Shown here: positions 4,663-32,912 of the stretch, one piece after another | How the letters are laid out: each line of letters begins with the position of its first letter | Numbering within the stretch: the stretch's first letter is position 1 | Source of the DNA: Candidatus Fervidifonticultor sextus | GTDB taxonomy: Bacteria > Sysuimicrobiota > Sysuimicrobiia > Sysuimicrobiales > Humicultoraceae | Assembly: GCA_031459875.1 (NCBI GenBank) | Contig: JAVKHQ010000030.1 | Span: forward strand, 1-33,075 | DNA: 33,075 nt | Direction of reading: 5' to 3' | Translations under genes and position numbers: made by a program | The notes under the pieces: model-generated | What the model saw: only the letters and a program-made list of their open reading frames with translations | What the model was told of the DNA's origin: nothing | Databases searched by the model: none

Positions 4663-5058
4663 TCAGGTCAGGTGGAACACGCCCAGCGTCGCCACGCGGG
4701 CGTGTTCCTTCTCGAGGATGGCTTCCAGGTCCATCCCGAAGAGGCTGCAGACGGCCGCCAGGTAGAAGAGGGCCATCCCGATCTCGGTCTCCAGCGCCTC
4801 CCGGCACCGGCCGCACAGTTTCCCTTCGAGGTGGCTCTGCACCAGGCCGCGGACTTCGGCCAGACTGACGGTGGCGGGGAAGCGCTGGCGGGTGGCGTGG
4901 ATCGAGACGCACCCGCAGGTCGTGACGGCCTTGGCGATGGCCCGGCTCACCCGGGCCGTGGCTTCTGCCAGCTTGCTTTCCACATCGAGGATGCTGCGGT
5001 GGCGGATCAGGTATTCGGTGACGGTGCTTTGGAAGGTGCCCTCGCTGAGTTCTGCCAC
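4663..5058 (-). CDS. Conserved hypothetical protein (LIRHRSILD...CGC...CxxC; resembles the small gene found near radA/yacL in Clostridia)
   Basis: GTG at 5058 with an AGGTGA SD and a consensus promoter upstream. 131 aa, helical, with Cys motifs TCGC and LCGRC. The C-terminal 'ETEIGMALFYLAAVCSLFGMDL' resembles a MazG-like helix (inference). Confidence 0.75.
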   Translation of the reverse strand: MAELSEGTFQSTVTEYLIRHRSILDVESKLAEATARVSRAIAKAVTTCGCVSIHATRQRFPATVSLAEVRGLVQSHLEGKLCGRCREALETEIGMALFYLAAVCSLFGMDLEAILEKEHARVATLGVFHLT

Positions 5059-5114
5059 GTCCTGTTCACCTCGCCCTGCCGGAAGGCGCCGCTCCACGCC
5101 GCACGTCGAGTGTC

Positions 5115-5272: not shown

Positions 5273-6358
5273 ATGCGCAAACACCTCCTCCTGCGGGCCG
5301 TTGGCGTGCTCCTCGGCGGCATTGCCGGGTACCAGGCGGTCCAGCTGGCGGCGCTGTGGAACCCGTCGATTGCCTCCACCGGGTTCCTCGTCACCTCCGC
5401 CAGCATCGCGGGCGGGGGGCTCGTCGGGCTGCTGGTGTTCCCGCTCCTCGCGCGCGGTTTTACCGCTGCCATGGCGTGGCTGCTCCACGGGATGGCCGGA
5501 CTCTCGCTCCGGGATCTCGTGCTGGCCGCGTCCGGGCTGTTGACCGGGCTGGTGCTGGCCTACGTGGTGGGCGCGTTGCTGGACGGCCTGCCCCTGGTCG
5601 GGCCGTACATGCGCCCGGTGGCCGGGGTCGTCCTGGGGTATCTGGGCCTGCACCTGGCGCTGCAGCGCCGCGAAGAAGTCGCCGGCATCCTTCCACGCGA
5701 CCCGCACCGGGCGGGATCGGACCGCGCCGCATGGACCGGCACTCCAAAACTGCTGGACACCAGTGTGATCATCGACGGCCGTATCGCCGAGGTCTGCCTC
5801 AGCGGGTTCCTTGAGGGCCCGCTCCTGGTGCCGCGGTCGGTGCTGGCAGAACTCCAGCGCATCGCCGATTCCGCTGATGTCCTGCGGCGCAACCGGGGCC
5901 GGCGCGGACTGGACATCCTCAACCGGCTGCAGAAGGAACTGGCGGTACTGCAGATCCTCGAAGACACCGGCGGCGCCGATGTGGATGCCCAGCTCGTCGC
6001 GCTGGCCAGGGCGCACCGGGCGGCGATCGTCACCACGGACGTCAACCTGAGCAAGGTCGCCGAACTGCAGGGCGTGCGGGTGCTCAACGTCCATCAACTG
6101 GCCCAGGCGCTGCGTCCGACGGTGCTGCCGGGCGAGGAGCTCTCGGTGCACGTGCTCCGCGACGGGAAGGAGGCCGGCCAGGGCATCGCCTACCTGGAAG
6201 ACGGGACGATGATCGTCGTGGAGGGCGGCAAGCGCCTCATCGGCGAGACCTCGGACGTGGTGGTGACCAGCGTGCTGCAGACCTCGGCGGGACGCATGAT
6301 CTTCGCCCGCCCCAAGTCCAGCGAGCCGGCCGGTCCGCCGTCGGTCGAGCGGCGGTAA
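5273..6358 (+). CDS. Membrane-anchored PIN/TRAM domain protein (YacL-like)
   Basis: Four hydrophobic N-terminal helices, PIN motif LDTSVIIDGRI...RGRRGLDIL...TTDVNL, TRAM region GKEAGQGIAYLEDGTMIVVE...QTSAGRMIFA. Usual position between radA and ispD. Confidence 0.92.
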   Translation: MRKHLLLRAVGVLLGGIAGYQAVQLAALWNPSIASTGFLVTSASIAGGGLVGLLVFPLLARGFTAAMAWLLHGMAGLSLRDLVLAASGLLTGLVLAYVVGALLDGLPLVGPYMRPVAGVVLGYLGLHLALQRREEVAGILPRDPHRAGSDRAAWTGTPKLLDTSVIIDGRIAEVCLSGFLEGPLLVPRSVLAELQRIADSADVLRRNRGRRGLDILNRLQKELAVLQILEDTGGADVDAQLVALARAHRAAIVTTDVNLSKVAELQGVRVLNVHQLAQALRPTVLPGEELSVHVLRDGKEAGQGIAYLEDGTMIVVEGGKRLIGETSDVVVTSVLQTSAGRMIFARPKSSEPAGPPSVERR

Positions 6359-26909: not shown

Positions 26910-27680
26910 GTGTGGAGCGGCCTGGTCGAACTCGTCTACCCGCCGCGGTGCGTCGGCTGCGGCGAGTCCGGCGCACTGTTCTGCGCCTCCTGCCAGCGCG
27001 GCCTGGTCCCCCTGGCCCCGCCGCTGTGTGCGCGCTGCGGCGGGTCCAGGGCGTCCACCGGGCCGCCGCCCGACGCCTCATCCTGCTGCCTCGCCTGCCT
27101 CCGGCATCCTCCTGGATTCGAGGCCGCCCGATCGGTGGCGGTCTACGAGGGTCCGATCCGGGCGGCCATCCAGGCCCTGAAGTACCGCCGCCGCCGCGCG
27201 CTGGCCGAACCGCTCGGCGGCCTCCTGGCCACTCAAGGGGCCGGGGACCCCGCGCTGAGGGCGACCTGCGTCGTCCCGGTCCCGCTGCATCCCTCCCGCC
27301 TGGCGGCCAGGGGGTTTAATCAGGCCGACCTCCTGGCGAGGCCTGTGGCGGTCCGGCTGGGACTCCCGTGCGTGCCGGATGCCCTCCGACGCATCCGCCA
27401 GGAGAGTCCCCAGGCCGAGTCAGACGCCGTCTCGCGCCGGACCAACGTCCTGCGGGCGTTCGCCCCGGGGCCGGCCCGCCCCTGGGGAACCGTGCTGCTG
27501 GTAGACGATGTCTTCTCGACGGGGTCCACGGTCTCGGCGTGTGCCGACGTGCTCCTGGAGGCGGGTGCGTCCCGGGTCGTGGTCCTGACGCTGGCGCGGG
27601 CGGTGCTGCGGTGCCTGAGTCAGGCCGCCCGGGAGGGGTGCCCGCGCAAAGGCCCCCGCCCACGGGAAAGGCAAGGATGA
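26910..27680 (+). CDS. comF: ComF-family protein (double Zn ribbon plus phosphoribosyltransferase domain)
   Basis: YPPRCVGC..CASC, CARC..CLAC, LKY, PVPLH..R...RGFNQA, LLVDDVFSTGST, VLTLAR. Confidence 0.9.
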   Translation: MWSGLVELVYPPRCVGCGESGALFCASCQRGLVPLAPPLCARCGGSRASTGPPPDASSCCLACLRHPPGFEAARSVAVYEGPIRAAIQALKYRRRRALAEPLGGLLATQGAGDPALRATCVVPVPLHPSRLAARGFNQADLLARPVAVRLGLPCVPDALRRIRQESPQAESDAVSRRTNVLRAFAPGPARPWGTVLLVDDVFSTGSTVSACADVLLEAGASRVVVLTLARAVLRCLSQAAREGCPRKGPRPRERQG

Positions 27681-27751: not shown

Positions 27752-28489
27752 ATGGCAGCGGGGTCGCAGTCCACCCGAATGCCTCCGGGGGGGCCCGCGA
27801 GAGCAGGGCTTGTCGCCTCACTCCAGTGGCTGGTGATCGAACTTGTCATGCGCGGCGGCGTGGGCGGGGCCCTGGCTGTGGCGCTGATACATGACGAAGA
27901 GCGCCTGTTTGGAACGATCGGTCTTGTAGAGTCAATCGCGTTGTGGCTGGCGATGCTGGTGCTCGGTGCCTTTTTTCTCCGCAAGGCCCGTCGCCAGCAC
28001 CTGCAGCCTGCAGACCTGGGGTACCGGATCTCTAGGGTCGCCGTGCTCATCGGCCTGGCCTCCGGCGCGGCGATTCTGGGGCTGGTGGGCGCGGCCAGCG
28101 AGATCGACCAGCGCCTGTTCGATCAGTCGCGGGCGCTGGAGTTCCGGCGGTCGTTGTCGGAGGCTGGATTGGTGAACGCCGTCATTCTCATACCCGCCAA
28201 TGGGGTCCTAACCCCGATCGTCGAGGAATTCGCCTGGCGCGGGTACATTCAGAGGCGCCTGATCGTCGCCTGGGGCGCGCCGGGGGGGATTCTCGTCACC
28301 TCCCTGCTCTTCGCCGGAAAACATGTGGTCGTCGATCTCTGGCTGGGACGCACCGTCGTCCTGATCCTCGGCTCCCTGGCCTTGGGGGTCGTCGGCGCCC
28401 GGTGGGGCACCCTGGCATCGACCGTGGCGCACCTCAGCGCGAACCTGAGCGCCACCGTCCTGGCTCTCCGCGAGGCGGGCGTCCTGTAG
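27752..28489 (+). CDS. CPBP (Abi/CAAX protease self-immunity) family intramembrane metalloprotease
   Basis: Multi-TM protein with EEFAWRG (EExxxR), FAGKH (FxxxH) and HLSAN (HxxxN). GGGGAGGG SD. Confidence 0.88.
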   Translation: MAAGSQSTRMPPGGPARAGLVASLQWLVIELVMRGGVGGALAVALIHDEERLFGTIGLVESIALWLAMLVLGAFFLRKARRQHLQPADLGYRISRVAVLIGLASGAAILGLVGAASEIDQRLFDQSRALEFRRSLSEAGLVNAVILIPANGVLTPIVEEFAWRGYIQRRLIVAWGAPGGILVTSLLFAGKHVVVDLWLGRTVVLILGSLALGVVGARWGTLASTVAHLSANLSATVLALREAGVL

Positions 28490-28689
28490 AATCTCCCTCG
28501 CCTCATCGCCCGTCGACGGGTGGGGCACGGCTCACCGGACGTCCTGCCCACCCTCTCAAACCAGTCCACGACAGGCGACCCCCGATCGATCTCCTGCAGT
28601 GAGCCGATAGACAGGGTGAAACACATTGGCGGGTTGTGCGGGACGTTGATGCAACGGGTCCGCACGACCCCCTACCGGGAGGGAATGGC

Positions 28690-29136
28690 ATGCGAGTCAT
28701 CGGCGGGTTCCTGATCTTCACCGTCTTCGTCGCCGGGATCGCGGTCAGCGGATCCCGCGCCCAGTCGCTGCCCGGCGAGAGTCTGGCGTTCCAGCAGTGC
28801 CTGGGCGGTTCCCCGCAGACCGGGGACCGGTGCATCCGGCCGGGCATCTCTGTCAGGCTGGCTGCCGGGGAGGACATCGGCGGCGACCGGGCCGTCGATC
28901 AGGTGGGCGATACGGGCTGGGCCGGTTGGGATGGATGGGGTAGTACGGTGGGCCAGGTCGAGAACGTGTCGGACCCGGAGTTCTGGCGGGAAATTCTTGT
29001 CGCCGTGGTGACCAAAGCCCTTGAGCACCTTGCTCAGAAGGCTGTGGATTGGGGGTGGGAACGTTTTGTCGGTACGGTGTCCTCGGAAGTAGTCGAGCTC
29101 GGACAAACGCCGACAATCTTCGATCCGGTCAGGTGA
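28690..29136 (+). CDS. Secreted precursor-like protein A (148 aa), paralogue of 29256-29696
   Basis: GGAGGG SD. Signal peptide ending GSRA|Q. Shares CLGG.P.TGDRC, GEDIGGDRA.DQVGD.GWAGW.GWG, EN.SDP, W..ERF.G and T.FDP.R with the next gene. Confidence 0.8.
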   Translation: MRVIGGFLIFTVFVAGIAVSGSRAQSLPGESLAFQQCLGGSPQTGDRCIRPGISVRLAAGEDIGGDRAVDQVGDTGWAGWDGWGSTVGQVENVSDPEFWREILVAVVTKALEHLAQKAVDWGWERFVGTVSSEVVELGQTPTIFDPVR

Positions 29137-29137
29137 G

Positions 29138-29176
29138 GTGGGGCGGGGAGGGTCAGGGTTCCTTTCCCGTCCCCGC
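29138..29176 (+). other. GC-rich stem-loop immediately after precursor A
   Basis: GTGGGGCGGGGAGGG pairs (with G-U pairs and one bulge) with CCTTTCCCGTCCCCGC. No U tract. Confidence 0.55.
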
Positions 29177-29255
29177 ATCTCGAGGGGCCGTCGCGTGATG
29201 TCCGGAACGTGATGTACGTCTCATTCAAACACAACGACAAGAGGAGGGGAAGGAC

Positions 29256-29696
29256 ATGAAGGTGGCTGGCATGCTCCTTATTCTCGTTGCCCTCGTCACA
29301 GGCGTCGCGGTTCAGGGGTCTCGCGCGCAGCCGCTGCACAGCACGAGTGCGGCCTTCCGGCAGTGCCTGGGCGGCGCCCCGGAGACAGGAGACCGGTGTA
29401 CCCTGCCGTCACTACTCGCCGTCGGTGAGGACATCGGCGGCGACCGGGCCATCGACCAGGTTGGCGATTCCGGTTGGGCCGGTTGGGGTGGATGGGGCGA
29501 AGAGCAGACCCGGGCCGAGAACCTCTCGGACCCTCAGCTCTTGAACAACATGATCCCCACGACCCCGACCATGACCGGCATGTTCGAGCTCTTTGTTCGG
29601 GCCATGGAGTGGGCCCGCGAGCGGTTCTTCGGGACGGGGCTCCCGATCGAACTTGATACGCGGCCCCCCCTCACGGTGTTTGATCCAGCCAGGTGA
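29256..29696 (+). CDS. Secreted precursor-like protein B (146 aa), paralogue of 28690-29136
   Basis: GAGGAGGGG SD. Signal peptide ending GSRA|Q. Same conserved blocks as precursor A, different central segment. Confidence 0.85.
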   Translation: MKVAGMLLILVALVTGVAVQGSRAQPLHSTSAAFRQCLGGAPETGDRCTLPSLLAVGEDIGGDRAIDQVGDSGWAGWGGWGEEQTRAENLSDPQLLNNMIPTTPTMTGMFELFVRAMEWARERFFGTGLPIELDTRPPLTVFDPAR

Positions 29697-29741
29697 CGGG
29701 CCGAAGGAGGGGGCCTCGTCTGGCCCTCTCCTTTCGATCCG
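29697..29741 (+). other. GC-rich stem-loop between precursor B and the SdpA-like gene
   Basis: CGAAGGAGGGGGCC / GGCCCTCTCCTTTCG stem. No U tract. Confidence 0.6.
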
Positions 29742-29754
29742 TACGGAGGATCTC

Positions 29755-30393
29755 ATGGCTCGGATGCTAGCGCCCGCGATCACCGCTGCCCTGTTGGCGG
29801 CCTTGTGCCTGACCTACCTGGCCAACACGTTCCTCTACCTCACCCCGCCCAACCCCTTGAAGGCCGACTGGTTGCCGCTGATCACGAGGCTGGCACATCC
29901 GCTGTTCGCGCAGAACTGGCACCTGTTCGCGCCCGATCCCATCCGGTCGAACTACGTGCTGTCGGCGCGCTGCCGCACGCGAGGTCGCGTGTCGCCCTGG
30001 CAGGACCTCACCCAGCCCATGCTGGCGCGGCACCATGCGAACCGTACATCGCCTATGAGTCGAATGCTCCGCGTCCAGCAGAACGCCATTCGGCTTACGC
30101 TCGGTTTCTCATATGACGAGTGGCGGCCGCTGATCTGTCGGCGTGATCCGAATGCGCCGGTCTGCCGCGGGCAGACGCCGGTGGTCGCGCGGCAGCGCGA
30201 GATCGGCGGATATCTGCTGCGGCGCATCGCGTCGGTCTCCTGCGACGGGCTGGTGGGTCCGGGACGGACCGAGGCAGTCCAGATCGCGATCCTCATTCAC
30301 ACTCCGCCTCCGTGGTCGAGGCGGAATTCGACCGATCAGGGGACGACACGGTTGTTCTTGCTCCCCTGGGCTGGATACGAACCGGTGAGGTGA
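29755..30393 (+). CDS. SdpA-like / DUF5819-like membrane-anchored protein
   Basis: GGAGGA SD. One N-terminal TM helix, then TFLYLTPPNP..HPLFAQNWHLFAPDP, the Q.W..FAP.P motif typical of partners of HTTM proteins. Four further Cys in the soluble domain. Confidence 0.75.
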   Translation: MARMLAPAITAALLAALCLTYLANTFLYLTPPNPLKADWLPLITRLAHPLFAQNWHLFAPDPIRSNYVLSARCRTRGRVSPWQDLTQPMLARHHANRTSPMSRMLRVQQNAIRLTLGFSYDEWRPLICRRDPNAPVCRGQTPVVARQREIGGYLLRRIASVSCDGLVGPGRTEAVQIAILIHTPPPWSRRNSTDQGTTRLFLLPWAGYEPVR

Positions 30394-30425
30394 GCAGCGT
30401 GGCGAGACGCCCTGGAGGCTCCCTG

Positions 30426-31715
30426 ATGGCCAGGCTCTCGCAGGAGCACTGGCTGATCGGCGCCGCCCTGACGCGCATGCTCCTGGGGGCCTGGGCGGTC
30501 TACTACTACCTCCTGCACTATCCCGTTCGGCATTTCCTGTGGGGCCCGAAGGGGATCTGGCCGTATAAGAAGTTCGTGGAAGAACAGCCGTTCCTCTCGG
30601 TCTGGCAACTCAACGCCTCGCCCCTCTTCTTCGAGGCCGTCTATCTCTCGGGAATCCTCATCGCGTTGGCCTATACGGTGGGGCTCTGGCCCAGGGTGAT
30701 GGGAGTCCTCCACTGGGTGATGATCTGGTCGCTCCAGGAGCGCAACCAGCTCATCACCGACGGCGGCGACAACATCATGCGGATTGTGCTCCTGTTCCTC
30801 ATCCTGGTGAACACAGGAGCCTGCCTGGCGATAGGCGGCTCTCGGGGTTCCCGCCGGATGCCCGCCGTGCTCCGCGAGGTCCTGGCCGTCGCGCACAACT
30901 TCGGGATCCTGCTCGTCCTCGGCCAACTTGCCGTGCTGTACACCAGCACCGGCCTGTACAAGGCCATGGGGGAACTCTGGCAGAACGGCACCGCGCTCTA
31001 CTACATCCTGCGGGTCGACGAGTTCTCCTGGCCGGCCGGAGCGGCCTTCATCTACGGCAACCCGTACCTGGTCGTCCTCGGGACGTACGGAACCGTCCTG
31101 TTCGAGGTCCTCTTCGCCCCCTCGCTGCTCAACCGGTGGACCCGCTACGCGGTGATCGCGGCGGGCGTCGGCTTCCACGTCGGGATCGCGGTCTTCATGG
31201 GACTGGTGACCTTCGGGTGGAGCATGCTGAGTCTCTACCCGCTCTTGCTGACCGACTCGGAATACCGGGCTCTTCGGGCCTGGTTGGTCCGGCGCCTCGG
31301 GCTGATCGTCTTCTACGACGGCTGGTGCCCGCTGTGCACCCGCAGCGTCCGGTGGCTGGCCGCGCTGGACCTGCTCTCGCTGGTGCAGTTTGTGTCGCTT
31401 CGGGATCCCGGCGTCCTCGAGCGCTACGGCGTGGACGCCGGCGACGCCGCGCGGCGTATGCAGTGTGTCGGTCGGAGCGGGAAGGTCCGCGAGGGCGCGG
31501 ACACGCTCATCGCCATCGCGGTCCGGTCGCCGGTCCTGCTCCCCGTCCTTCCCCTGTTGGTGGCCGGACGGCTGATCGGCGGCCAGCGCTGCTACGACGC
31601 CGTGGCCTCGCGCCGGTTCGTCCTGGTCCCCGGCGCCTGCGAGGGGCACTGTGACGTCGCCGTGGCGGCCGAGGGGACACAGCCAGCGGGAAGGTTGGAC
31701 CGGATGCCGCGCTAG
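30426..31715 (+). CDS. HTTM-domain (SdpB-like) membrane protein fused to a DCC1/DUF393-type thiol-disulfide domain
   Basis: SLQERN..TDGGDN, Q..VLY..TGLYK..G.LWQNGTALYY, FHVGIAVFMGL..F (HTTM-type). Then IVFYDGWCPLC...YDAVASRR (DCC1-type). GGAGG SD before ATG 30426. GTG 30390 (GTGA overlap) is an alternative start. Confidence 0.82.
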   Translation: MARLSQEHWLIGAALTRMLLGAWAVYYYLLHYPVRHFLWGPKGIWPYKKFVEEQPFLSVWQLNASPLFFEAVYLSGILIALAYTVGLWPRVMGVLHWVMIWSLQERNQLITDGGDNIMRIVLLFLILVNTGACLAIGGSRGSRRMPAVLREVLAVAHNFGILLVLGQLAVLYTSTGLYKAMGELWQNGTALYYILRVDEFSWPAGAAFIYGNPYLVVLGTYGTVLFEVLFAPSLLNRWTRYAVIAAGVGFHVGIAVFMGLVTFGWSMLSLYPLLLTDSEYRALRAWLVRRLGLIVFYDGWCPLCTRSVRWLAALDLLSLVQFVSLRDPGVLERYGVDAGDAARRMQCVGRSGKVREGADTLIAIAVRSPVLLPVLPLLVAGRLIGGQRCYDAVASRRFVLVPGACEGHCDVAVAAEGTQPAGRLDRMPR

Positions 31716-31748
31716 CAGGATGCTGAAAAATGTTCTATATCTTGTGGC

Positions 31749-31777
31749 TTCACAAGATGCCACCAACCATGTATAGT
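31749..31777 (+). promoter_or_regulatory. Transposase promoter inside the IS left end
   Basis: TTCACA, 17 nt, TATAGT. The -35 is overlapped by the inverted repeat ATCTTGTG-gctt-CACAAGAT (31739-31758). Confidence 0.5.
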
Positions 31778-31826
31778 CTCGTCGAGTTCAGGCATGCATC
31801 TCACCCTTTCCACGGAGTGACAGACG

Positions 31827-32912
31827 ATGCGCGGAGACGACCTGCGGCAGGACGCCCTGTTTAGCTACCTCTCGCCCGAGGCCCGGGTCCCTCAGGATCA
31901 TCCCCTGCGTCCCATCCGCCAGCTGGTGGACCGCATCCTGGCGGCGCTGTCGCCGGAGTTTGCCCGACTCTATGCTCGGACCGGACGGCCTTCGGTGCCG
32001 CCCGAGCACCTGTTGCGCGCCTTGCTGCTGCAGGTGCTCTACACCATCCGCAGCGAGCGGCTGCTGATCGAGCAGCTGGACTACAACTTGCTGTTCCGCT
32101 GGTTCGTGGGGCTGAGCCTGGACGATCCGGTCTGGGACGCCACCACCTTCACCAAGAACCGCCAGCGACTGCTGGATGGGGAGATCGCCCAGCGGTTCTT
32201 CGAGCAGGTCCGGGCGGAGGCCGCCGCGCGAGGGCTGCTGTCGGACGAGCACTTCACGGTGGACAGCACGTTGCTGGAGGCCTGGGCCAGCCTGAAGAGC
32301 TTCCGGCGCCGGGATCAGGATCGTCCCTCCCCGCCGGACGACCCGGGCAACCCCACGGTGGACTTCCGTGGGGAACGGCGCAGCAACGCCACCCATGCCT
32401 CGACCACGGACCCCGAAGCCCGTTTGGCGCGGCGGGGCGAGGGGCGAGAAGCACACCTGGCCTACCAGGGCCACGTGCTGATGGAGAACCGCCATGGCCT
32501 GGTGGTGGCGGCATGCGTCACCCCAGCCACGGGCACCGCGGAGCGGGAGGCGGCCGTGGCGCTGGTCCAGCAGGTGGCGGGCCGAGGTCGCATCACCCTG
32601 GGGGCGGATAAGAGCTACGATACGGCGGCGTTCGCGGCGGCTCTCCGCCGGCTGGAAGTCACCCCGCATGTCGCCCAGCAGACCCGAGGACGAACCAGCG
32701 CGATCGACGCCCGGACCACACGCCACCCCGGCTATGCCGTCAGTCAGCAGAGACGCCACCGGGTGGAAGAGATCTTCGGCTGGCTGAAGACGGTGGGACT
32801 GCTCCGCAAGGTCCGGCACCGCGGGAGAGCTAAGGTCCACTGGCTCTTCGTCTTCGCCGCCGCGATCTACAATCTGGTCCGCATGCGCAACCTCGCCGAG
32901 GTGGCCGCATGA
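31827..32912 (+). CDS. IS5-family DDE transposase (DUF772-type N-terminus)
   Basis: VPQDHPLRPI, YARTGRPSVPPE.LLRALLLQ.LY.IRSER...LLFRWF. Catalytic candidates VDST, ADKSYD, VEEIFG. ORF is intact, 361 aa. Confidence 0.92.
   Translation: MRGDDLRQDALFSYLSPEARVPQDHPLRPIRQLVDRILAALSPEFARLYARTGRPSVPPEHLLRALLLQVLYTIRSERLLIEQLDYNLLFRWFVGLSLDDPVWDATTFTKNRQRLLDGEIAQRFFEQVRAEAAARGLLSDEHFTVDSTLLEAWASLKSFRRRDQDRPSPPDDPGNPTVDFRGERRSNATHASTTDPEARLARRGEGREAHLAYQGHVLMENRHGLVVAACVTPATGTAEREAAVALVQQVAGRGRITLGADKSYDTAAFAAALRRLEVTPHVAQQTRGRTSAIDARTTRHPGYAVSQQRRHRVEEIFGWLKTVGLLRKVRHRGRAKVHWLFVFAAAIYNLVRMRNLAEVAA

Follow-up and report, generated by a model that had tools for sequence, protein, structure and literature searches.

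Small secreted proteins with a Phe-Asp tail as candidate substrates of a DUF5819/HTTM maturase-like module found in several bacterial phyla

Maturation of the SdpC toxin reportedly requires SdpAB, in work attributed to Perez Morales et al. in 2013, and we know of no explanation for the chemical step that SdpAB performs. MloH is said, from work of Law et al. in 2018, to be the fused HTTM carboxylase of malonomycin biosynthesis, acting on an aspartyl target. Among the systems in the literature, cited throughout from the accessible portions of each source, the sdpABC and yitPOM operons of Bacillus subtilis combine a signal-peptide precursor having a hydrophobic C-terminal part with SdpA/SdpB-type genes, and they yield secreted toxins (PMC6818787). 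Linaridin clusters comprise the LinA precursor, the HTTM protein LinG, the alpha/beta-hydrolase LinE or a LinH fusion, and LinL (bioRxiv 10.1101/2020.07.09.196543; PMC9927463). A 2026 preprint proposes a bacterial vitamin K-dependent carboxylation system and predicts that a DUF5819 plus HTTM-DCC1 pair of Melghirimyces thermohalophilus forms a complex resembling GGCX and the fused MloH, the latter containing a region that corresponds structurally to DUF5819 and acting on a small-molecule intermediate (bioRxiv 10.64898/2026.08.19.745780). In this study, we examined a five-gene locus (27752-31715) in positions 1 to 33,075 of contig JAVKHQ010000030.1 from “Candidatus Fervidifonticultor sextus,” a stretch of 33,075 nucleotides (nt) that we refer to as the window. 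The host belongs to a lineage of Armatimonadota metagenome-assembled genomes (MAGs) from hot springs, consisting of “Candidatus Fervidifonticultor” and its relatives. An initial annotation, made from the nucleotide sequence without database searches, had called the system a candidate undescribed one; for the enzyme pair this does not hold, since the pair is already described in the accessible text of the preprint (bioRxiv 10.64898/2026.08.19.745780), while for the class of small proteins beside it no description was found in the literature searched.

The locus encodes a CPBP protease, two small secreted proteins (designated A and B), a DUF5819 protein, and an HTTM protein fused to a DCC1-like domain, and it is probably a substrate-plus-maturase module, in which a split maturase resembling SdpAB and GGCX has the small proteins as its candidate substrates. 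The five genes all run on the + strand, separated by short gaps and each preceded by a Shine-Dalgarno-like sequence, and they lie between comF and an insertion sequence (IS), as the initial annotation had described. The first gene (27752..28489) encodes a CPBP (Rce1-like) intramembrane glutamic protease of 245 amino acids (aa) (PF02517; expect value [E], 6.7e-12). Protein A (28690..29136; 148 aa; tail, IFDPVR) is followed directly past its stop codon by a GC-rich hairpin (29139..29173, +; minimum free energy [MFE], -33.8 kcal/mol; z, -1.64), and protein B (29256..29696; 146 aa; tail, VFDPAR) is separated from the next gene by a strong hairpin with a 14-bp GC-rich stem (29693..29744, +; MFE, -35.4 kcal/mol; z, -2.83). 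The DUF5819 protein (29755..30393; 212 aa; PF19136 E, 1.4e-20) carries the motif QNWHLFAP. Starting 32 nt past it, the fusion gene (30426-31715) encodes a 429-aa membrane protein, of which the SdpB/GGCX-like HTTM membrane domain occupies 30426..31295 and the DCC1-like thiol-disulfide oxidoreductase domain (DGWCPLC), with the C-terminal end of the fusion, occupies 31308..31715 (PF04134 E, 2.3e-13, residues 295-399). Pfam, NCBIfam, and BLAST comparisons thus agree with the earlier description of a CPBP protease, twin signal-peptide paralogs of about 147 aa, and an HTTM-DCC1 fusion.

A wider pattern emerges from loci for which a match to Q[ND]W[HG]LFAP, a motif of DUF5819, was the sole criterion, one genome per species, with the neighboring genes disregarded. 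Eighty such loci were obtained from at least eight phyla, their sources being Armatimonadota, Chloroflexota, Sorangium, Vicinamibacterales and other Acidobacteriota, Thermus/Deinococcales, Bdellovibrio-like bacteria, one proteobacterial MAG, Bacillales (Paenibacillus, Brevibacillus, Thermoactinomyces, and others), and Streptomyces and other actinomycetes. Open reading frames (ORFs) were listed independently of frame and anchored by hidden Markov model (HMM) and tblastn matches. An HTTM gene lay directly downstream of DUF5819 in 78 of the 80 loci, and in 68 DUF5819 was immediately preceded, on its own strand, by a small signal-peptide ORF of 74 to 151 aa; in another three, a contig end falls upstream of DUF5819.

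The upstream ORFs share a tail, [L/I/V/A]-F-D followed by 0 to 4 residues. Among those identified in the first pass, 58 of 71 ended in FD.{0,3}, compared with 81 (1.4%) of all 5970 ORFs with 70 aa or more that these loci contain, and in the window's own genome an FD tail was found in 8 of 3238 coding-like ORFs. The 67 upstream proteins that were retained fell into 17 BLAST clusters, and the tail was kept in 16 of these. Three residues before the tail F, 56 of 66 proteins have D, S, or E. Because the genomes span a range of 32% to 72% GC, the shared tail is a protein-level rather than a DNA-level feature. No real match to NCBIfam was obtained for any of the 67 proteins, and none to Pfam for the 33 that were scanned. 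Like the window's twins, the small gene occurs in tandem paralogous copies upstream of DUF5819 in two other loci, with three copies in a Deinococcales MAG (L097, 4574-5759, +) and two in Paenibacillus massiliensis (L099, 4823-5898, +).

Closer to the host, 60 related genomes were searched, consisting of 33 from the host's family and 27 from other families in the order. With a profile of both small proteins, homologs were found in 17 of the 33 family genomes and in none of the 27 others, and DUF5819 was present in 18 of the 33 and, at about 25% identity, in 3 of 8 genomes of one other family. Homologs of the small proteins were also sought away from the DUF5819 and HTTM genes. In all 17 family genomes, the best match shared its contig and strand with DUF5819 and lay no more than about 600 nt upstream of it; in the 18th DUF5819-positive family genome, DUF5819 is at a contig end, and only two marginal extra matches occurred elsewhere (E, 8e-4 and 1.7e-3). 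The independent occurrence of precursor homologs that would have refuted the initial annotation was therefore not seen. When two unpublished genomes (G013 and G022) are left out, the small protein is found in 15 of 31 family genomes, DUF5819 in 16 of 31, and the CPBP ortholog described below in 12 of 16. By tblastn, the order rpoD-ahcY-comF-(CPBP)-small protein-DUF5819-HTTM-DCC1 was found in 10 of 19 fetched loci, with a single small gene in most relatives, where the window has two. The setting between comF and an IS, which the initial annotation had treated as local, is therefore no local oddity, being syntenic in the host's family, with the three-gene core extending across many phyla. The gene grouping is not due to chance and recurs in 17 of the 33 family genomes.

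Outside these genomes, a word-indexed protein search with protein B returned only protein B itself and its paralog, and an exhaustive profile search of 1.84 billion representatives returned 44 matches at E<=1e-3, which indicates that the Armatimonadota sequence family is small; by inspection, 3 of the 44 (P0003, P0034, and P0038) are spurious repeat proteins. The best score in the ESM Atlas, 0.80, was at noise level.

Proteins A and B are 50% identical (E, 9e-41) and match no Pfam or NCBIfam family. Each begins with a hydrophobic, signal-peptide-like segment ending in SRA|Q, and they share an architecture in which the signal peptide is followed by a SLAFQQC...C segment (as in A), an acidic, Gly/Trp-rich linker, an amphipathic helix, and the C-terminal tail. 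In an alignment of 48 Armatimonadota sequences, C37 and C48 were invariant and F142 and D143 nearly so; other conserved positions were the signal-peptide end G-S-R-A|Q, S31, and A33, with A18, G21, S22, and A24 of the signal-peptide region nearly invariant, and the middle of the protein was variable, acidic, and Gly rich. The Cys pair is specific to this lineage, since the mature part is free of cysteine in most FD-tail proteins from outside the Armatimonadota. An AlphaFold2 model of protein B consists of the signal helix, a short helix, a disordered acidic stretch, an amphipathic helix (residues 105-124), and a free tail (predicted local distance difference test [pLDDT], 64; predicted template modeling score [pTM], 0.25), and it is accordingly non-globular and not that of a globular enzyme, a fold that would have refuted the initial annotation. 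Between relatives, the small proteins are 25-49% identical and the enzymes 50-67%. In several phyla, a P-E/D or E-P motif was seen by eye just before the hydrophobic or amphipathic helix (L089-L113, L114-L140, and A and B of the window), with the variants V-E-P-Q in Bacillales, K/G-P-E-K in Streptomyces, and S/D-P-E/D in Armatimonadota; this motif may be a cleavage or recognition site.

The hairpin after the small gene is likewise a recurring element. For the one that follows protein B, 1 of 200 shuffled sequences folds as well; for the one that follows protein A, 13 of 200 do, so that the latter is weak alone. When the 60 nt past the small-gene stop were ranked against 200 random windows of the same locus, they were among the top 5% for formation of a long perfect hairpin in 40 of 67 loci, compared with about 3 expected.

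The two enzyme genes differ in how far they can be connected with known families. For the DUF5819 protein (75 bits against the Pfam cutoff of 27.1), the model consists of an N-terminal membrane helix (residues 2-29) and a confidently folded domain (pLDDT, 91.3; pTM, 0.76); the protein has four cysteines outside the membrane helix. Across 58 sequences, P31, N33, P34, F51, Q53, W55, L57, F58, A59, P60, and P62 are invariant. The long helix dominates the fold-search results, and the best VIA-align match (Z, 5.3) covers the N-terminal helix only. A profile-profile comparison of DUF5819 with a six-sequence SdpA alignment gave a probability of 41% (E, 2.8e-4; 70 columns), in which the aligned stretch comprises the membrane helix, N-P, and F-x-Q-x-W-x-F. 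A predicted complex of HTTM-DCC1, DUF5819, and mature protein B had a median score of 0.31 against a mark of 0.32, without controls, and speaks neither for nor against binding.

For the HTTM protein the connection is firmer. The Pfam HTTM domain scored 20 bits, below the cutoff of 27.7, and the NCBIfam SdpB model TIGR04033 matched with an E of 2.6e-20 at 73 bits; because this is below the 178-bit cutoff, the protein is a relative of SdpB and not an equivalog. A comparison by hhalign with SdpB from a genuine sdpABC operon gave a probability of 99.2% (E, 1.8e-19; 235 columns), which makes the HTTM domain a real homolog of SdpB, in support of the initial annotation. Searched against the PDB, a 45-sequence HTTM profile retrieved only chains of human GGCX (8 distinct sequences; best E, 2.4e-6), the HTTM core being aligned to GGCX residues ~114-327. 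Lys179 of the window protein was aligned with the second Lys of the GGCX sequence GVKK, which we take to be the catalytic base Lys218. Of the 45 HTTM partners, 34 have K at position 179 and 11 have Q, all of the latter being from Bacillales. Side by side with position 181, three states were seen, namely, K-x-M, K-x-Q (mostly in enzymes without DCC1), and Q-x-M (Bacillales), which may represent covariation of two active-site residues.

The DCC1 extension was present in at least 41 of 78 HTTM partners, as judged by phmmer matches reaching the domain end, and was absent from about 34, such as those of Sorangium and Streptomyces; wherever it is present, D298, C301, and C304 are kept. The hydropathy topology of the fusion protein is ambiguous as to the side of the membrane that the DCC1 domain faces. 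In one Bacillales genome (L150; G066:C1:1127000-1131000), sdpA and sdpB are followed by a free-standing DCC1-like gene (1949-2389, +; 146 aa; YDGYCPYC), so that the association of HTTM with DCC1 does not require their fusion; no SdpC-like gene was seen within the fetched stretch of this locus.

CPBP proteins carry the motifs EExxxR, FxxxH, and HxxxN. The protease of the window (46 bits against the PF02517 cutoff of 22.4) has VEEFAWRG, FAGKH, and AHLSAN. At E<=1e-10, a CPBP ortholog was found in 14 of the 18 family genomes that have DUF5819 but in none of the 42 other genomes, which comprised family members without DUF5819 and genomes of other families with a distant DUF5819 or none. In the four genomes where the ortholog is missing despite DUF5819, the contigs are short or completeness is 59-68%; one of the four has a fragment. 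In 12 fetched loci CPBP was adjacent to the module, upstream in 9 and downstream of HTTM-DCC1 in 3; one genome has none in the locus but carries one at the start of another contig. No CPBP gene was found in 63 non-Armatimonadota loci with an HMM built from Armatimonadota sequences, which distant CPBPs could escape. As a fourth, lineage-specific component, CPBP belongs to the Armatimonadota version of the module.

These observations can be assembled into a model. The core consists, in fixed order, of at least one small Sec-exported protein, a membrane-anchored DUF5819 protein, and an HTTM enzyme, here fused to DCC1. DUF5819 and HTTM would together make up a two-gene relative of GGCX and of the SdpA/SdpB maturase, working on the outer face of the membrane, where the small non-globular proteins would be modified and/or processed once their signal peptide had been cleaved. 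Recognition might proceed via the two conserved ends, namely, the [D/E/S]-x-h-F-D tail and, past the signal peptide, a segment that reads S-x-A-F-x-Q-C in this lineage, and the hairpin after the small gene would allow more substrate than enzyme to be made. Such an arrangement, with a surplus of substrate for a two-part membrane maturase, fits the constant gene triad, the conservation at both ends, the tandem copies, and the hairpin. The reaction could be a quinol-dependent carboxylation or oxygenation directed at the tail Asp. In the Armatimonadota family, CPBP might trim the residues past F-D (F-D-P-x-x), much as CAAX proteases remove -AAX; such trimming is suggested because 2-4 residues follow the tail D in all 16 Armatimonadota proteins (mostly P-x-x) and 0-2 in 44 other FD-tail proteins. 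The substrate role of the small proteins, a reaction type aimed at the tail Asp, the role of CPBP, and the action of the product are what we infer here.

The boldest version of this model, prompted by the kept Lys and the precedent of MloH, by analogy with the conversion of Glu to Gla in GGCX, is that DUF5819/HTTM would be a quinol-dependent carboxylase turning the tail Asp into beta-carboxy-aspartate, after which the Armatimonadota CPBP would remove P-x-x in a CAAX-like two-step process. We regard this as a long shot. On the aligned sequences, the Gln variants and the F-N tails speak against tail-Asp carboxylation as a universal rule.

Several observations weigh against the substrate-plus-maturase reading. 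Three of the upstream ORFs end in L-D and three in F-N, and 8 of the 77 judgeable loci have no such upstream ORF. Most enzymes with Gln179 still have FD-tail neighbors, and the F-N tails go with Gln; with Gln at this position in 11 of 45 enzymes, mostly beside FD-tail proteins, a Lys-dependent tail reaction is not universal. The initial annotation had called the DUF5819 gene SdpA-like, a label that is at most tentative. Pfam SdpA (PF17418) gave no match on the DUF5819 protein at E<=0.1 and none in the genome at E<=1, with a positive B. subtilis control, and the profile comparison, at 41%, does not prove homology. In the fold search, the DUF5819 model had no Foldseek match at E<=0.001, and GGCX was not among the matches. 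The related genomes are kin, so the counts in the host's family overstate independence, and the calls of signal peptides and start codons came from a simple in-house heuristic.

A further point of this kind is that the small protein could instead be a structural third subunit or membrane anchor of DUF5819/HTTM, the true substrate being encoded elsewhere or not being a protein. Strict co-occurrence with the enzymes and a fixed gene order are what a subunit would lead one to expect, the signal-peptide region is unusually conserved in Armatimonadota and could mean an uncleaved anchor, and MloH, the one bacterial HTTM enzyme whose reaction is known, uses a small-molecule intermediate according to the accessible text of the preprint (bioRxiv 10.64898/2026.08.19.745780). 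However, the hypervariable middle and non-globular model speak against a subunit, the small gene is duplicated in tandem in three lineages, the hairpin that separates it from the enzyme genes points to different expression levels, and conservation is concentrated at both ends, like recognition sequences; we consider a subunit unlikely. Still less probable is a DsbB/VKOR-type module for thiol/quinone redox exchange in the envelope, in which HTTM-DCC1 would move electrons between quinone and the Cys pair of the small protein, the latter serving as a redox partner or carrier. This is attractive for the intact DxxCxxC of DCC1, for C37 and C48, invariant in the 48 Armatimonadota small proteins, and for the four DUF5819 cysteines, but the FD-tail proteins of other lineages mostly have no mature-part cysteine, DCC1 is missing from about 34 of the 78 HTTM partners without loss of the small protein or its tail, and the presence of DCC1 does not track that of cysteine.

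The possibility that the small proteins are toxin precursors of an SDP/YIT-type bacteriocin, matured by DUF5819/HTTM, with CPBP as an Abi-type immunity protein or processing protease, is a claim on the role of the product and overlaps with the substrate-plus-maturase reading. The precedent of the secreted toxins of SdpABC/YitPOM points in this direction (PMC6818787, in its accessible text), as do the homology of HTTM to SdpB, the amphipathic helix (or Ala/Gly-rich hydrophobic helix in other phyla), and tandem copies of small proteins that diverge faster than the enzymes. A hairpin 3' of the structural gene is a pattern of bacteriocin operons, and a hairpin follows the structural gene here. Against this, the locus is single copy in each genome and sits in a fixed housekeeping neighborhood in 10 of 19 fetched loci with comF retained (Armatimonadota), no transporter or SdpI/SdpR-like gene was detected among the five genes with Pfam and NCBIfam, and SdpC is longer, lies downstream of sdpB, and has no F-D end. 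A toxin role is possible by analogy, although we lean away from it; the stable neighborhood and the absence of a transporter or immunity gene disfavor a typical strain-variable weapon. Finally, the genes might be chance neighbors or a mosaic left by an IS, with no common function, as an IS5-family transposase directly downstream could imply. We give this almost no credence, since it is contradicted by family-wide co-occurrence and adjacency: as many as 14 genomes, drawn from 9 genera, retain the four gene families as a group, the core is found in at least eight phyla, and the window transposase has no tblastn match in the 19 fetched related loci.

Upstream of the locus, comF (26910-27680) has a DZR_2 domain above the Pfam cutoff and matches the NCBIfam comF/GntX models with E values of 5.6e-24 and 8.3e-33, below their cutoffs; downstream, the IS5-family transposase is intact (31827-32912, +; NF033581 E, 1.7e-82, above cutoff; DUF772 and DDE_Tnp_1). 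The remainder of the window consists of housekeeping genes, namely, greA, clpC-like, radA-like, ispDF, cysS, moaA, hup, lysS, fusA-like, dnaG, rpoD, and ahcY. Among these are a gene for a PIN-TRAM protein (5273-6355, +) and, on the opposite strand, an unassigned 144-aa ORF (4666-5097, -). The G+C content of the module region (28000-32000) is 0.65-0.68 and that of most of the window is 0.69-0.77. In a coding filter based on third-codon-position GC (GC3), small protein A failed and B passed, which may reflect the unusual composition of these genes. A consensus scan for promoters and terminators found a number of sites not above that in shuffled sequences. The sequencing runs listed as containing this DNA were four hot-spring metagenome DNA runs of a single study, one of them perhaps its source, and no RNA run was among them.

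HTTM/SdpB maturases, the DUF5819-HTTM-DCC1 pair, and CPBP proteases are already known. What appears to be new is the class of small proteins with an F-D tail, its near-constant place upstream of DUF5819-HTTM in different phyla, the intervening hairpin, and the linkage to CPBP, for which no description in print was found in the literature searched, a search that did not extend to subscription papers and supplements. Bacterial relatives of GGCX, including SdpB, linaridin LinG, and the partners of DUF5819, are widespread, and these loci supply a candidate substrate and a candidate target residue. If the carboxylase version of the model is true, a bacterial homolog of the vitamin K carboxylase would, in the small proteins, have its first class of ribosomal protein substrates, which would carry a new post-translational mark in many phyla. 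Candidate substrates are encoded in cultivable Paenibacillus, Brevibacillus, Streptomyces, and Sorangium cellulosum So ce56 and are thus directly testable by mass spectrometry. The class is unannotated, having no Pfam or NCBIfam model, and may include new membrane-active peptides.

Comparison with the described systems shows how much of the module is shared and how much is its own. The module of the preprint has both domain architectures seen here (an N-terminal helix with DUF5819, and HTTM followed by a DCC1-like domain) in adjacent genes, and its conserved HTTM motif K-x5-W corresponds to K179/W185 of the window protein; in its accessible text, however, it names no substrate, upstream small secreted gene, F-D tail, hairpin, or CPBP partner (bioRxiv 10.64898/2026.08.19.745780). 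With linaridin clusters the locus shares an HTTM membrane protein beside a small precursor gene (PMC9927463; bioRxiv 10.1101/2020.07.09.196543, in their accessible text), sources that also confirm the HTTM proteins of such clusters to which the initial annotation had pointed. It differs in the Sec signal peptide and in the absence, judged by eye, of a PxxxTP motif from A and B. Since Pfam also detected no alpha/beta-hydrolase domain in the five genes and two flanking genes, a linaridin cluster was rejected. A myxosortase-type sorting system was rejected as well. The best NCBIfam matches of the CPBP protease were myxosortase models (E, 8.5e-9 to 6.8e-6), at 35 bits against cutoffs of 75-250, and the two kinds of system have in common an Rce1-like domain with the three motifs and partner proteins having a conserved C-terminal signal near the end, but the small-protein tails here have no Cys and no C-terminal hydrophobic segment of the kind found in a transmembrane sorting domain.

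The sdpABC operon is nearer. It shares with the locus the SdpB-homologous HTTM protein, a small membrane-anchored partner encoded just before it, the transmembrane/N-P/F-x-Q-x-W-x-F stretch, and a precursor that is exported via Sec, is not an enzyme, and has a C-terminal part of hydrophobic or amphipathic character. The partner here is, however, DUF5819 and not Pfam SdpA, DCC1 and CPBP are added, and the small genes lie upstream, whereas in four operons SdpC lies downstream of sdpB and has 199-226 aa; none of the four complete SdpC proteins has an F-D end. With no NCBIfam or Pfam match, an upstream position, and another length and C terminus, A and B were rejected as SdpC-family precursors, and the earlier remark that they were not recognizable as SdpC or linaridin precursors is borne out. 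One Brevibacillus genome has a true sdpABC operon and a DUF5819 module at separate loci, which marks the two as distinct systems.

MloH, compared by description and not by sequence, is likewise a bacterial HTTM enzyme with an aspartyl target, but it is a single fused protein whose substrate is a polyketide-peptide intermediate within a biosynthetic cluster, as far as the accessible text describes it (bioRxiv 10.64898/2026.08.19.745780). GGCX itself has a homologous HTTM core in which the aligned Lys is kept, and its exported substrates are recognized via a short conserved stretch adjoining the signal peptide, to which the conserved segment here may be parallel. The protein is split over two genes here, in contrast to GGCX, which has no DCC1; there is no Gla-domain-like substrate in the locus, and the candidate target is a C-terminal Asp instead of clustered Glu residues. 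By analogy, the logic of the module would nonetheless fit that of SdpAB with SdpC and that of GGCX with its propeptide-bearing substrates.

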